From UHGV virus genome UHGV-1366990: a stretch of 64,000 nucleotides of DNA, one strand, 5' to 3'. Source of the DNA: a virus. Positions 2,454 to 50,746 of the stretch are shown here, piece after piece (positions within the stretch are counted from its first letter, which is position 1; each line of letters begins with the position of its first letter). The notes below the pieces were generated by a model that was given only the letters and a program-made list of their open reading frames with translations, was not told the origin of the DNA and made no database searches. The position numbers and the translations under genes were made by a program.

Positions 2454-2681
2454 CATGCGCGAGTATTTCAACTGGCTGTTGGGTAAGCCCCTGATGCGCT
2501 GAGATCCGTTGTCTAATCGATGCCATTGACGCCCGACATCACAAGCGCCGGATTAATCACACAGAGGCTCAGGCCGAAATTAAAATCGTGAAGAAGTCCA
2601 CAAGGCTCTAGGTTTCATAACAAATAATTCAATAAACTATTCACCCATATAATACATGGGAACTTACAGAAGGAACAGACC

Positions 2682-3023
2682 ATGACTACACTCGTAGAAA
2701 CATTATTCCCAGGCTGTGTGCTTGGGCGCGGTGGATCCGAAGCTAATGGGCTACCGATCGACGTCGAACCTCAGAACTGTGTTATTGTTGATAAGTTTCA
2801 CGACAACCATTATGCCCTGAACAATCGTCGTGACCACTATCTTGTTTCCGTAGGAGATTCTTTGGTCAGTCTGCGTATCTGCAAGGCTATGCCAGGATCC
2901 GGCTATGGAGCATTCGCCTATATTCACAGCGTGTCAAATAGCGAGCTGGATAAAGAAGCCCTGGTTGAAAAATTCAAGAGTTGGAAGGATTCTTTCACCT
3001 CAATTGAACCCCCGAAGAAATAA
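2682..3023 (+). CDS. hypothetical protein
   Basis: 113 aa, SD AAGGAA; sits downstream of an AT-rich intergenic region containing TATAAT at about 2648-2653. Confidence 0.6.
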   Translation: MTTLVETLFPGCVLGRGGSEANGLPIDVEPQNCVIVDKFHDNHYALNNRRDHYLVSVGDSLVSLRICKAMPGSGYGAFAYIHSVSNSELDKEALVEKFKSWKDSFTSIEPPKK

Positions 3024-3038
3024 CTGAGGATTACACTG

Positions 3039-3647
3039 ATGTCGCTGAAAAACTTACTGAAACGCATCTTCACCACTGTTGAAGCCAACGCCACCGCAGG
3101 TCTGGATAAACTGACCGGCACCGAAAAGCGCCTGAACCTGGCTGCTCGCAAGCTGTCTGATGAAATCCGTCGCCTGGAGGAAGCCCGTGTCACCAACGTC
3201 CGCAACGGCGTCAAGCTGAAGAAGACCGCAGAACAGAACCTCAGTGAAGCCGCCAAGCGCGAAGAAGTTCTGAAGGATGCCATCGCTCGTGGTGTCACAC
3301 CAACCCGCGCCGACGCCCTGATTATTCTGCATCGCCGCCGTATCGGTGAAGCCCTGTTGTCTCAGGTGAAGGACATCGAAGCAAGCAGCGACAAACTGAA
3401 CGGTGCGATCATCCAGCTGGGTGACAAACTGGACGAAGTCAAGTCCAATCTCGAGCTGGTTCGTGTTCAGAAAGAGACGAACGACCTGGGTCTGGTGCTC
3501 CCTGAAGATATCGATTATGCCGCTGGTATGACCACCATCGATATCGATGCCATCCTGCGCGAAACCGAAATCGCTGATTCGAGCTACTCCGCCAACAGCC
3601 CGTCGTCTATCGAAGCCGACAACTACCTCGCCAGCCTGAGCAAATAA
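3039..3647 (+). CDS. PspA/IM30 (phage shock protein A)-like coiled-coil protein
   Basis: 202 aa. The N-terminus LKRIFTTVEANATAGLDKL resembles the PspA N-terminus FSRFADIVNANINALLEKA; the rest has heptad coiled-coil character. Comparison is from memory. Confidence 0.5.
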   Translation: MSLKNLLKRIFTTVEANATAGLDKLTGTEKRLNLAARKLSDEIRRLEEARVTNVRNGVKLKKTAEQNLSEAAKREEVLKDAIARGVTPTRADALIILHRRRIGEALLSQVKDIEASSDKLNGAIIQLGDKLDEVKSNLELVRVQKETNDLGLVLPEDIDYAAGMTTIDIDAILRETEIADSSYSANSPSSIEADNYLASLSK

Positions 3648-3651
3648 CATC

Positions 3652-3671
3652 AGAGGGGCTTATGCCCCTCT
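3652..3671 (+). terminator. hairpin AGAGGGGC-ttat-GCCCCTCT after the PspA-like gene
   Basis: 8-bp stem starting 5 nt after the stop at 3645-3647; the downstream tract is not T-rich, so this may be a processing or attenuation hairpin rather than a terminator. Confidence 0.35.
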
Positions 3672-3688
3672 ATCACTTCGGGGATCTT

Positions 3689-4222
3689 ATGAACATTATT
3701 GATTCTTTCAACATACTCACTGGAGCTACTGCTTTCGTTCTTTTGTGTATTGGCAGTGCCTGGCTGAGAGGTCGACTGAAGAAACGGGAAGTCTTGAAGC
3801 GAGACCGTGTTGACATCCACAAAATAATGCTGGATAGAACTTGCAAACATGGTCCCAGCGGTGACTTCCGTTTGTATTATTTGTCGGATGAAGTCACCCC
3901 TTCGGAATTCTTCAATTATGCGATGGCTGGGTTGCATTGGCCGGAGATAAATGACGTTGTTCAGAAAAAAGATTACGTGTACGTGAATATGGCTTCTCTG
4001 AACAAGCACGGGGAACGCGACGATCTGCGGATGTGGTTCTTTGGAGGAGAGGAACAAGAAGAGTTCGTAAAAGAACTTGCTCTCTTGCTTAACACGTACG
4101 AAAAGGCTGGTTGCCCACCACTCGAGGTGGAAGAATCAGTAGAATCTATCGTGGCTCGCGCTCGTGGTGAAACCGTGGATCTACTGAACAAATACGGCTT
4201 TGTCTGGGCGGAGGGTTCATGA
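3689..4222 (+). CDS. membrane protein, unknown function
   Basis: ORF 3662-4222, but the first ATG lies inside a terminator-like hairpin; the ATG at 3689 has GGGGAT upstream. N-terminal hydrophobic helix. Confidence 0.55.
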   Translation: MNIIDSFNILTGATAFVLLCIGSAWLRGRLKKREVLKRDRVDIHKIMLDRTCKHGPSGDFRLYYLSDEVTPSEFFNYAMAGLHWPEINDVVQKKDYVYVNMASLNKHGERDDLRMWFFGGEEQEEFVKELALLLNTYEKAGCPPLEVEESVESIVARARGETVDLLNKYGFVWAEGS

Positions 4223-4294
4223 TGGATACAGAAACATTTGCGGTCATTATCAGCCAAGCAAGATCCCGTACCCGCCAATAATCTATTGAAGTCC

Positions 4295-4327
4295 CCAGGG
4301 TTATAATAGCAGCACATATAACCCTGG
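4295..4327. promoter_or_regulatory. 11-bp perfect palindrome CCAGGGTTATA-(11 nt)-TATAACCCTGG upstream of the ligase gene
   Basis: Arms contain TATAAC / GTTATA; the ligase ATG is at 4337. Confidence 0.35.
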
Positions 4328-4336
4328 AGACACCAC

Positions 4337-48684: not shown

Positions 48685-48762
48685 CAACTTTGATAGCTCT
48701 GGTACTAAAGATCCCGCGTCACCCATAGACATGGTTTATAAAATCCAGAGCTATCAAAGTTG
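48685..48762. repeat. 18-bp perfect inverted repeat with 42-nt spacer
   Basis: CAACTTTGATAGCTCTGG at 48685-48702 and its exact reverse complement at 48745-48762. Confidence 0.8.
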
Positions 48763-48783
48763 CACCCAATGCTCTCTCAAGTT

Positions 48784-48909
48784 CACAAATCGAAGTGCCC
48801 TGACTCAACAGTATGGCCCAATATGCTGTTATCGTCCACCGGATTGGCCGCCCAATTTGTAGATCAACCTTTGGGTTTAAGATAAATTGTCAAGACACTT
48901 CGATTTGTG
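48784..48909. repeat. 14-bp perfect inverted repeat with 98-nt spacer
   Basis: CACAAATCGAAGTG at 48784-48797 and its reverse complement CACTTCGATTTGTG at 48896-48909. Confidence 0.8.
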
Positions 48910-49905
48910 TGCCCTTCACCTGCCAGGGATCAGGGCTGATGGCAAGACTTCGCTCACATCTTTCAAGATACTCGTGAGAATATCCTCAAAGATGTGGAGC
49001 CGTTTTTAGGAGTCGAACCCAAATGCTTGGCCAGCGCTGACCTTACATCCCATCTGACTTAGGCAACCCACCTCTGCTTACTCAGGAGCTTATCCCCTTT
49101 GGACAGTCAGATATAACGGCATTGTCGACGGGAGATTATTAATCACACCCTCCCGTCTATTTTAGTGCGCCGAATTTGGTGATGAGGAATCGGAAGACCT
49201 CACTGACTTATAGGCTGTTACGCCGCCATCAGAACTTCGGAATCATTAGCAGTTATTTGCTTGGTCAGTTTCTAAAAACCCGCAAAGTCACTCACAACGA
49301 AAACGAAAACCTGTTTGAGCACAAGACGCCATGTCCTGGGTTCACATCGAAGTGTTTGTCTAATGCCCAAACAGCTTTTCGCTTCAGTGGGTTAACTATA
49401 CTTTGTAACCCGTTATTGATAAAACCTTTTATTTTTGTTGGCGAGGGTATCACCATCGATTTACCGGAACTTACGCATCCGGCCTCGCCTGTTGGTGATC
49501 CTTCGAATCCGGGAAGATCAGTAGGAACTATGAATCAAGTTAATTCAACCAACAGGAACCTTGTTGCCCTTTGACGCAACATTATGAACCCTCTATGGAA
49601 GACTCATAATGTTGTCGGCGTGATGGAGATTAGCGCCCCCGACCTCCCCTTGTGTTGGTGTCGACTTGCCAACGGGGTGCTCTCTATTTCTGAGCTAATC
49701 ACGCTACAACAGGGAGTTTCGTTCTCCGACGGTCAAGTGCGTCCACTGACACCATGCAAGGTGGATATTGACTTATGAAGCCGGAGTCCTCGTCCTAGGA
49801 CTGTGCTTGGCCTCAGCCTTTACACCGCTGGTCGCCCGACTCTTTACACCATAAAATTTACTATACTACAGCCAAGCTAATTTGAAAAGTCCTCTCCTCT
49901 TTGTG

Positions 49906-50052
49906 CTACACTGCCCACAGCAGTGCGGACGAACCTTCACACAAAACCGGATGCGCCGAAGTGGGCGACTGTTTACCGGACTGATCGGGTAGACCCAGGA
50001 GAGAGCAGGTAATCCCGATCAGGAGGATGAGGAGTAACATCATGTAAAACAT
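49906..50052 (-). CDS. small signal-peptide/lipoprotein-like peptide (48 aa, not in ORF track)
   Basis: ATG at 50052 preceded by a strong SD GGAAGGAGGG; encodes MFYMMLLLILLIGITCSLLG... ; stop TAG at 49906-49908. Confidence 0.4.
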   Translation of the reverse strand: MFYMMLLLILLIGITCSLLGLPDQSGKQSPTSAHPVLCEGSSALLWAV

Positions 50053-50092
50053 AGTGTTCCCTCCTTCCATGCAACTAACTTTACTGCAATTA

Positions 50093-50105
50093 TTTATTGA
50101 ATAAA
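50093..50105. promoter_or_regulatory. palindromic TTTATTGAATAAA motif
   Basis: Exact copy of the motif at 43996-44008; located between the 50109-50678 gene and the small peptide gene. Confidence 0.4.
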
Positions 50106-50108
50106 GCG

Positions 50109-50678
50109 TTATTTTAACACTTCTAACTTCACAACACGACGCAGAAGGTAAACATATTCGCCAGCAGCTTCATGCGTCATATAATGGGTAGAAGGTGTGG
50201 AATGAGTGTTCTGGGTTTCTTTTAATCCAACGCGTTCAGCCCAACCATTAATAGAGTTCCCATAGAAACCGATAATCGCGCCAAAATAAATGCGCCCGCT
50301 TTCTGGCTCTAAAACGTAGTTGACAGTGAAGCAAATGTCAGAACGAATAGACTCCAGTTTCATACCAACACGACCTTCAGAGAATTCGTTACGAACATAT
50401 AAATGACGGAAGCGATCGCGCCGTGCTTGTGATGATTCTTCCAATTCTTGTCGAAGTGAAGAAGTTATGTCAATATTAAATGAAAATGTTGGATTTCGTA
50501 AATCAGAACGGGCCAACTCTAACGCAGATTCAATAACGCGACGGAAATTGATACTTTTACCTGTCAGGCGTTTCACTTCATCGGTGATTGTTTCAAAAGG
50601 GATTTTCGGGGCGCGTTCCCCTTCGTATTTTGCTAACAAAGGAATAATGTGTTTCATGATTGCTGTGTTAATGTGCAT
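50109..50678 (-). CDS. hypothetical protein (orphan gene between tRNA region and baseplate module)
   Basis: 189-aa ORF; SD-like GAGG upstream; no recognisable motif. Palindromic motifs lie on both sides. Confidence 0.55.
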   Translation of the reverse strand: MHINTAIMKHIIPLLAKYEGERAPKIPFETITDEVKRLTGKSINFRRVIESALELARSDLRNPTFSFNIDITSSLRQELEESSQARRDRFRHLYVRNEFSEGRVGMKLESIRSDICFTVNYVLEPESGRIYFGAIIGFYGNSINGWAERVGLKETQNTHSTPSTHYMTHEAAGEYVYLLRRVVKLEVLK

Positions 50679-50731
50679 TCCGGAGCCTCACTGGATTGAT
50701 TAAATGTCTCCGTTATTATATTGGGAGTATG

Positions 50732-50746
50732 TTTATTGAATATAAA
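50732..50746. promoter_or_regulatory. TTTATTGAATATAAA motif (variant of the palindromic motif)
   Basis: About 55 nt upstream of the 50678 start on the minus strand and about 300 nt upstream of the baseplate gene. Confidence 0.35.

Follow-up and report, generated by a model that had tools for sequence, protein, structure and literature searches.

The window analysed here, a stretch of 64,000 nucleotides of the virus genome UHGV-1366990, belongs to an Agtrevirus-type phage of the Ackermannviridae with ~96–97% identity to the Escherichia phages ZQ1 and YX22. Several of its intergenic regions carry a recurrent element that an earlier, sequence-only reading described as the near-palindrome TTTATTGAAYAAA. 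This form is TTTRTTCAATAAA in reverse complement, and the core conserved between copies is TTCAATAAA; the near-palindrome is the reverse complement of this core, which is the upstream box of TTCAAT-N14-TATAAT, a motif published for the ViI-like phages (Ackermannviridae) and reportedly originating from Adriaenssens et al. 2012 (Arch Virol 157:2035). The observation made from the sequence is genuine, yet the motif is already known. Among the regulatory motifs given for the Agtrevirus EspM4VN is TTCAAT[N14]TATAAT, which belongs to a pair of “unique regulatory motifs” published for the phage group (PMC7283392), and the sequence, spacing, phage family and intergenic placement are the same in the window, where nothing essential differs. 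What the published form omits is the AA(A/C) extension of the box, a weak upstream T-n-A, the hairpin over the -10 hexamer and the layout of a second class of sites (class B, below).

The positions that the sequence-only reading gave for its copies are all correct, as are its distances of 25–85 nt to the next start codon or tRNA 5' end (Table 1). Its 13-mer matches at five positions, seven times when both strands are counted, against 0.14 expected (100 shuffles), while the core TTCAATAAA occurs eight times, against 0.62 expected and a maximum of 3 in any shuffle. All eight core copies are intergenic, intergenic DNA making up 11.5% of the window by the gene map made here. Additional copies, absent from that reading, are a one-off 13-mer at 40076–40088 and cores at 32275–32283 and 34970–34978. 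Each site is co-directional with the downstream gene or tRNA, most of them with a -10 hexamer at a fixed distance, and in most core copies a TATAAT-like hexamer lies 11 nt past the box, in the orientation of the gene or tRNA that follows. The consensus unit is (t)T-n-a-TTCAATAA(A/C), 11 nt, and TATAAT or TATTAT, which equals TTCAAT-N14-TATAAT; position 3 of the box is C without exception. The combination TTCAATAA-N12-TATWAT has five matches in the window against 0.00 expected, and TTCAAT followed after exactly 14 nt by TATAAT has three exact matches (2628+, 40084- and 50740-), with variants of N13 at 48258- and N15 at 47235-.

Table 1. Box-containing sites in the window, with their predicted assignment and the copies listed by the sequence-only reading
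Position	Strand	Assignment	Elements	Next start	Hairpin	Copy in the sequence-only reading
2628..2653	+	predicted class A promoter	TTCAATAAA 2628–2636, 11 nt, TATAAT 2648–2653	ATG 2682 (113 aa)	weak CCCAT/ATGGG around -10	half-site ATTCAATAAA 2627–2636
32258..32283	-	predicted class A promoter	TTCAATAAA-N11-TATTAT	ATG 32228 (116 aa)	-10 in loop of strong hairpin (-21.6 kcal/mol), then T-run	not listed
34953..34978	-	predicted class A promoter	TTCAATAAA-N11-TATTAT	ATG 34915 (63-aa ORF)	-10 in loop of terminator-like hairpin 34972–34937 (-26.5 kcal/mol, T-run)	not listed
40059..40084	-	predicted class A promoter	TTCAATAAA-N11-TATAAT, immediately past DNA polymerase stop codon; 13-mer 40076–40088 with one mismatch	ATG 40022	TATAAT is loop of GGGGGA/TCCCCC	not listed
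47209..47235	-	predicted class A variant	TTCAATGAT, 15-nt spacing, TAAAAT	ATG 47168 (218 aa)	TAAAAT within GGGGGTT/AACCCCC	half-site ATTGAACAAA 47230–47239
48234..48258	-	predicted class A promoter, tRNA cluster	TTCAATAAA, 13-nt spacing, TGgTATAGT (extended -10)	tRNA-Asn 5' end 48224		TTTATTGAACAAA 48250–48262
50715..50740	-	predicted class A promoter, divergent intergenic region	TTCAATAAA-N11-TATAAT	ATG 50678 (189 aa)		one-off copy 50732–50744 (given with a TA insertion, 50732–50746)
50078..50105	-	box with weaker -10-like hexamer	TTTATTCAATAAA, TAAAGT at 12-nt spacing	SD AAGGAGG, ATG 50052 (48 aa)		TTTATTGAATAAA 50093–50105
43996..44037	+	predicted class B promoter	TTTATTGAATAAA 43996–44008 (UP-element position); TTTACT 44010–44015; TTCAATAA 44018–44025 in 16-nt spacer; TATACT 44032–44037	ATG 44082 (183 aa)		TTTATTGAATAAA 43996–44008
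654..691	+	box and TTTACT site	TTCAATAAC 654–662 directly upstream of TTTACT 663–668, 17 nt, TAATAT 686–691	ATG 735 (397 aa)	terminator-like hairpin 629–649 precedes

When considered by layout, the sites fall into two classes. In class A, the box occupies approximately -32 to -24, in the place of a -35 element, at 14 nt (13–15) from a -10 hexamer often placed within a GC hairpin or terminator loop; the hairpins enclosing the -10 at 32283, 34978, 40084 and 47235 range from -15 to -26.5 kcal/mol. The class A hexamers (TATAAT, TATTAT, TATAGT and TAAAAT) are all TATAAT-like, sharing A2 and T6. A -35 hexamer of the σ70 type is lacking at the N14 sites: their match to TTGACA at 16–18 nt is 2–4 of 6, no better than the random mean of 2.45, none has a TG extension, and among class A sites a generic σ70 scan passes only 40088–40059. 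Class B sites comprise a T4-early-like TTTACT-16/17-TATACT promoter whose spacer holds one box, with a further copy, often in inverted orientation, immediately before the -35 element, and the site at 44010–44037 does pass the generic scan as TTTACT-16-TATACT. A larger inverted pair, TTATTGAA-N12-13-TTCAATAA, flanks the -35 of class B promoters, including 43996–44025, and class B cassettes at several loci have ~100 nt in common, including the 5' UTR and RBS. A reading of the box as a 3'-UTR or RNA element was also considered and is not applicable to the site at 50740, where the flanking genes are divergent and no co-directional gene lies upstream.

The genome-wide intergenic enrichment that the sequence-only reading had named as a check is found in ZQ1, the closest complete genome, where 12 of 12 copies of TTCAATAAA and 23 of 28 of TTCAATAA are intergenic, against 11.4% of the genome. 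There, 17 of the 23 intergenic boxes are aimed at a start codon 50–150 nt away, while those at 47058-, 105075+ and 107655+ face away from all neighbouring genes. The most frequent intergenic 8-mer of ZQ1 is TTCAATAA, as it is in Vi01, KP6 and Ds25CZ; it ranks first in the Agtrevirus-like, Kuttervirus, Taipeivirus and Limestonevirus genera, with no enrichment in a distant Vibrio relative. Spacing between box and -10 shows a sharp peak at N14, with 6–7 sites per genome, and a second at N8; neither peak appears among coding copies of the box. At orthologous sites across the four genera, box, hairpin and -10 are unchanged amid varying flanks, the one change in a hairpin stem is compensatory, and TAnnnT is retained at N14. 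The window site at 50715–50740 is orthologous to site 61226–61251 published for EspM4VN, the site at 50078–50105 is conserved in Vi01 and KP6, and the inverted pairs TTATTGAA-N12-13-TTCAATAA are kept between ZQ1 (Agtrevirus-like) and Kuttervirus. A scan of IMG/VR for TTCAATAAA-N11-TATAAT gave, among the matches listed, single and scattered matches.

Most probably, the motif is the upstream box of a conserved pre-late promoter of enterobacterial Ackermannviridae, directional toward the next gene or tRNA. The suggestion of the sequence-only reading that it might be a phage-specific early or middle promoter element outside the σ70 consensus fits the fixed spacing, the gene orientation, the conservation in four genera and the match to the published motif. 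Promoter activity, timing class and recognition of the box are what we infer from these patterns, the literature searched containing no transcription start sites, transcriptomes or promoter assays for Ackermannviridae. Host RNA polymerase with σ70 would engage the canonical -10, and the box, centred near -30, would stand in for the missing -35 contact, either directly or via a phage or host factor. Many copies would act as terminator-promoter cassettes, in which the box is followed by a GC hairpin with the -10 in its loop: upstream transcripts would end at the hairpin, and new ones would start inside its 3' arm, thereby escaping termination.

Two features of the box count against this proposal. 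With TTCAAT and the -10 separated by 14 nt, there is too little room for a normal -35 contact by σ70, which leaves direct recognition unexplained. Moreover, the box has no single position relative to the -10: class A has it at N14, the class B spacer has it at N8, and the copy upstream of TTTACT lies at approximately -45. Such variability would sooner be expected of a site bound by a factor, or of a cassette present in repeats, than of a contact with polymerase.

One rival reading holds that the box has no sequence-specific function and has been conserved because recombination duplicates and homogenises cassettes made of terminator, promoter and UTR, so that it would serve at most as an A/T-rich UP-like stretch or as filler in a terminator A-tract with stop codons. 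The ~100 nt common to class B cassettes at several loci would be expected of such a process, at 32283 and 34978 the T-run of the next hairpin is paired by the AAA of the box, and the promoter-early stem-loops (PeSLs) of T4-type phages have the same layout (PMC2839356). However, class A paralogues have only the 8–9 nt box and the -10 in common, and since their 11-nt spacers and flanks are wholly different, they are not the product of cassette homogenisation. The box is, besides, held at exactly N14 across four genera amid changing neighbours, and its invariant C at position 3 would be needless in a generic A/T tract. We therefore regard a box without specific function as very unlikely.

Somewhat less remote, though still improbable, is that a dedicated DNA-binding protein of the phage or host uses the box as its operator; it would activate class A from approximately -30, in a σ appropriation resembling that by MotA/AsiA, and repress the strong early promoters of class B by occupying the spacer and the copy upstream of the -35, producing an early-to-middle switch. 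A box near -30 at 11–12 nt from the -10 reproduces the geometry of T4 middle promoters, class A lacks a usable -35 or TG extension, and the same 8-mer recurs at three positions relative to the core promoter, together with the conserved inverted pairs around the -35; on the other hand, the distances from box to -10 differ by 6 bp between the classes, so that there is no common helical phasing. Of the dyad, the right half (AATAA) is near-invariant over 17 class A N14 sites (16–17 of 17 per position), while the mirrored left-half positions are conserved in 9, 6, 13 and 9 sites, the T at -3 (13 of 17) contributing to a dyad that is only partial. The dimeric regulator site that the sequence-only reading had deduced from the dyad is unsupported as stated, because the half-sites are conserved unequally and the sites are strand-specific, and a symmetric dimer operator was rejected for the same reasons. 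The class B inverted pair may nonetheless bind a protein.

Neither the window nor ZQ1 nor Vi01 gave a homologue in searches with T4 MotA and AsiA (tblastn and phmmer). The best tblastn hit had an E of 0.08 and lay inside a topoisomerase gene, whereas the T4 control gave 1e-56 and 1e-139. Kutter et al. 2011 likewise found no MotA/AsiA, and the pre-late regulation of the ViI-like lineage is described in the same work as unknown (PMC3184105). The 83-aa HTH ORF at 16728–16979, put forward by the sequence-only reading as a candidate regulator, shows a sub-threshold similarity to σ70 region 4; as neither ZQ1 nor Vi01 encodes it, although both relatives carry the motif, it cannot be the general factor. 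The 80-aa ORF at 6233–6475, the other HTH protein of that reading, is conserved and has no informative family match. A further candidate factor is the conserved 104-aa ORF at 294–608, with a match to phrog_639 “transcriptional regulator” and none in Pfam or PDB. When compared by eye with the consensuses of IHF (WATCAANNNNTTR), the ARG box and H-NS (TCGATAAATT), the box shows a loose likeness to H-NS only. That TTCAATAA is the operator of a factor replacing -35 recognition at approximately -30, and shutting off class B through the inverted pair, in enterobacterial Ackermannviridae devoid of MotA, AsiA, Alt and ModA, is a proposition to which we give little credence; if true, a lineage related to T4 would have a new kind of switch from early to middle transcription.

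The predicted class A promoters resemble T4 middle promoters in having a 9-nt box near -30 instead of a -35 element, 11–13 nt from a canonical -10, and in preceding replication and nucleotide-metabolism genes. However, the MotA box, (a/t)(a/t)(a/t)TGCTTtA, is unrelated to TTCAATAAA, the box here being TTCAATAA(A/C) at every site, and MotA and AsiA themselves were not found here. Class B, in turn, resembles T4 early promoters (GTTTAC -35 region, A/T-rich upstream stretch and TATAAT) in its (G/C)TTTACTTC...TATAMT with 16–17 nt spacing and an A/T-rich upstream region, although, to our knowledge, T4 early promoters have neither a conserved TTCAATAA in the spacer nor an inverted upstream copy. PeSLs, known from RB49 and phi1 and associated with recombination and mini-circles between cassettes, consist of an A/T-rich stretch with the upstream stop codon, an early promoter, a stem-loop of a G-run and a C-run between or over the boxes that acts as a terminator, an SD and a start codon (PMC2839356). 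The sites in the window share the stem-loop and A/T-rich layout, and are likewise composite intergenic modules, many per genome, beside small ORFs; PeSL promoters, in contrast, follow the σ70 consensus with a normal -35, while class A has TTCAATAAA at -30 and no -35.

Since the motif would mark the pre-late transcription units of widely used biocontrol and reporter phages (ViI, CBA120, LIMEstone, Ag3 and relatives), it helps their annotation and engineering. From a mechanistic point of view, the interest lies in predicted promoters that have a perfect -10 and an invariant box at -30 without a -35 or TG extension, and the reader of the box, once found, would explain how host RNA polymerase is programmed before gp55-dependent late transcription. 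In the ViI-like phage family, thymidines are hypermodified. Late-type CTAAATACCCC sites are separate from the box and are located before the tail fibre and tail spike genes.

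The window belongs to an Agtrevirus-type Ackermannviridae phage. Over most of its length, identity reaches 96-97% with other phages of this type (Escherichia phages ZQ1, YX22 and A221 and Enterobacter phage fGh-Ecl02), and it is about 90% with Shigella phage Ag3; the gene content includes rIIA/rIIB, topoisomerase II, a DNA polymerase, tail fibre/spike genes and a few tRNAs in a small cluster. A near-palindromic motif, TTTATTGAAYAAA, had been noticed upstream of its gene starts by the sequence-only reading, with coordinates that all proved correct on re-checking. When at most one mismatch is allowed, the motif is found at five positions in the window (7 strand-matches vs 0.14 expected), including an overlooked copy at 40076-40088. 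Its conserved core (the box), TTCAATAAA, lies on the opposite strand and is present in 8 copies vs 0.62 expected in the window, those at 32283- and 34978- (box position and strand) being additional to the earlier list. All eight are intergenic in a gene map made in this analysis, which assigns 11.5% of the window to intergenic sequence and matches a close relative's annotation wherever sites were compared, and a start codon or tRNA 5' end follows 26-63 nt downstream.

Read on the same strand as the gene downstream of it, TTCAATAAA is followed by 11 nt and then by TATAAT or TATTAT, forming the unit TTCAAT-N14-TATAAT. This unit has three exact matches in the window, and its TATWAT version has five vs 0.00 expected; the spacing varies to N13 at 48258-, before tRNA-Asn, and to N15 at 47235-. 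The observation is real and highly non-random; the motif had been read on the wrong strand, its -10 partner missed and its dyad over-read. It is not new, having already been described for Ackermannviridae phages: the genome paper of EspM4VN (Agtrevirus) presents it, together with CTAAATAcCcc, as the phage group's "two unique regulatory motifs" (PMC7283392). Window 50715-50740, the copy first noticed at 50732-50746, aligns with the published EspM4VN site at 61226-61251, and the window sites share the sequence, placement and conservation features of the published TTCAAT[N14]TATAAT motif, whose promoter activity is putative. Both motifs were reportedly first described by Adriaenssens et al. in 2012 (Arch Virol), who are said to have defined "Viunalikevirus" in the same work.

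The intergenic enrichment expected by the earlier reading also holds genome-wide. In ZQ1, the closest complete genome, where 11.4% of the sequence is intergenic, 12/12 copies of TTCAATAAA and 23/28 of its 8-mer form, TTCAATAA, are intergenic. By frequency, TTCAATAA is the top intergenic 8-mer in ZQ1, and likewise in Salmonella phage Vi01 (Kuttervirus; 26/44 copies intergenic), Klebsiella phage KP6 (Taipeivirus; 8/11) and Dickeya phage Ds25CZ (Limestonevirus; 7/7); this enrichment is absent from the 41-kb stretch examined of the distant Vibrio phage K489. Distances from the box to a good -10 show a sharp peak at N14, to which each genome contributes 6-7 sites, and a second one at N8, with neither peak seen among box copies within genes, and 17 of the 23 intergenic boxes of ZQ1 are directed towards a start codon at a distance of 50-150 nt. 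At orthologous sites (those of 32283 and 34978 and the one after the DNA polymerase gene), box, hairpin and -10 are constant in four genera while the flanks vary, with one compensatory stem change and TAnnnT kept at N14.

When considered from the point of view of architecture, the sites fall into two classes. In class A, the box occupies approximately -32 to -24 and is followed by a TATAAT-like -10. That the motif is not the sigma-70 consensus is borne out here, as TTGACA is matched at 2-4/6 positions at 16-18 nt, no better than random; a TG extension is found at none of the class A N14 sites, and a generic sigma-70 scan recovers only one class A site. A GC hairpin carries the -10 in its loop at 32283, 34978, 40084, 47235 and, weakly, 2628, the hairpins having energies of -15 to -26.5 kcal/mol and two of them being followed by T-runs. 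A start 6-8 nt past the -10 would fall in the 3' arm, so that the new transcript would be free of the hairpin, and read-through from upstream would run into a terminator. This composite layout of terminator and promoter is the same as in the PeSL cassettes of the T4-type phages RB49 and phi1, but the promoter type differs. Conservation was counted over 17 class A N14 sites, drawn from the window, ZQ1 and Vi01. The right half keeps its T-A-A (positions 5-7) in 16-17 of them, while on the mirrored left side the counts at -1 to -4 are 9, 6, 13 and 9, the T at -3 being clearly non-random. Since the half-sites are so unequally conserved, the dyad is partial and the element directional, and a classical symmetric operator, as the palindrome had suggested, is unsupported.

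Class B sites resemble T4 early promoters, being putative, sequence-defined (G/C)TTTACT-16/17-TATAMT promoters with one TTCAATAA within the spacer, at N8 from the -10, and a second box just upstream of the -35, often inverted to give TTATTGAA-N12-13-TTCAATAA. The perfect palindrome first seen at 43996 is the upstream member of such a pair, and at 654-691 the box directly adjoins TTTACT-17-TAATAT. Several class B sites have about 100 nt in common, including the 5' UTR (CATAAGCAGTACGACAC…) and RBS (GAAGGAACTATATCATG); members of this cassette are ZQ1 135839- and 125110-, Vi01 63966- and 99216-, and window 44018+. In being repeated in this way, the cassettes strongly recall the PeSL cassettes of T4-type phages.

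Class B and late-type sites. The ZQ1 sites have equivalents in Vi01; the late-type sites stand 28-44 nt upstream of tail fibre/spike genes and ORF 44659-45117.
Type	Genome	Position	Strand
Class B	window	43996-44037	+
Class B	ZQ1	16268	-
Class B	ZQ1	135839	-
Class B	ZQ1	125110	-
Class B	ZQ1	85828	-
Late-type CTAAATACCCC	window	45156	-
Late-type CTAAATACCCC	window	45242	-
Late-type CTAAATACCCC	window	54883	+
Late-type CTAAATACCCC	window	61041	+

The best-supported reading from sequence is that of a pre-late promoter, at which the host sigma-70 holoenzyme would use the canonical -10 and the box would supply an upstream determinant. TTCAATAA sites stand before small ORFs, nucleotide-metabolism genes and tRNAs, and the pre-late assignment is supported by the late-type CTAAATACCCC sites being separate from them and preceding tail genes. 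A 14-nt gap is too short for a normal sigma-70 -35 contact, and class A shares its geometry with the MotA-dependent middle promoters of T4, although the box sequence differs. The box could instead bind a factor acting as an activator at class A sites and as a repressor at class B sites, an idea kept alive by the three different positions that it holds relative to the core promoter; we regard this as improbable. Neither MotA nor AsiA has a detectable homologue in the window, in ZQ1 or in Vi01, in line with Kutter et al. (2011), who found Alt and ModA also lacking and early promoters not then identifiable (PMC3184105). The literature searched yielded no TSS or expression data for Ackermannviridae. 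What remains of value is how a -30 box is recognized in a lineage without any of the T4 early/middle regulators.

Several minor observations accompany these sites. At 3/4 late-type sites, an inverted repeat of CTAAATACCCC (…GGGGTATT) follows 10-20 nt further on, and a hairpin is therefore predicted at the start of the late transcript. The 5' UTR of the 40084 promoter (40000-40058, -) contains CCTGTTAACCCTTTGACAAACAGG, a hairpin overlapping the Shine-Dalgarno sequence, invariant in an alignment of four genera, which may be a translational control element. Within ORF 36995-38593, an orthologue of a homing-endonuclease gene, a variant box ATCAATAAA is followed by the hairpin GGAGAACAGGGGTAATTCTCC (38175-38204, -), which may represent an internal terminator, an internal promoter or a sign of a miscalled ORF. 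An 83-aa ORF (16728-16979, -) contains an HTH resembling sigma-70 region 4.2 (…ISQARVSQILRE…), with scores below the cut-offs of both profiles (Pfam PF04545, E 0.006; TIGR02937, E 4e-4), and, since both ZQ1 and Vi01 lack it, counts as accessory in this phage. The DNA polymerase gene (40085-43084, -) is a single intact 999-aa ORF, and the annotations of ZQ1 and Ds25CZ split it into several pieces with extra ORFs or a homing endonuclease between them. At 47240-48480, ARAGORN predicts three tRNAs only (Ser, Asn, Met), a close relative being annotated with five for this region (Ser, Tyr, Asn, Trp, Met), and the stretches between them resemble degenerate tRNA remnants. Finally, the top intergenic words of K489 are AGTATAAT and TATTAATA, and its DNA polymerase gene has as a neighbour a gene of 600 aa (15892-17694) whose annotation reads RNA polymerase sigma factor.
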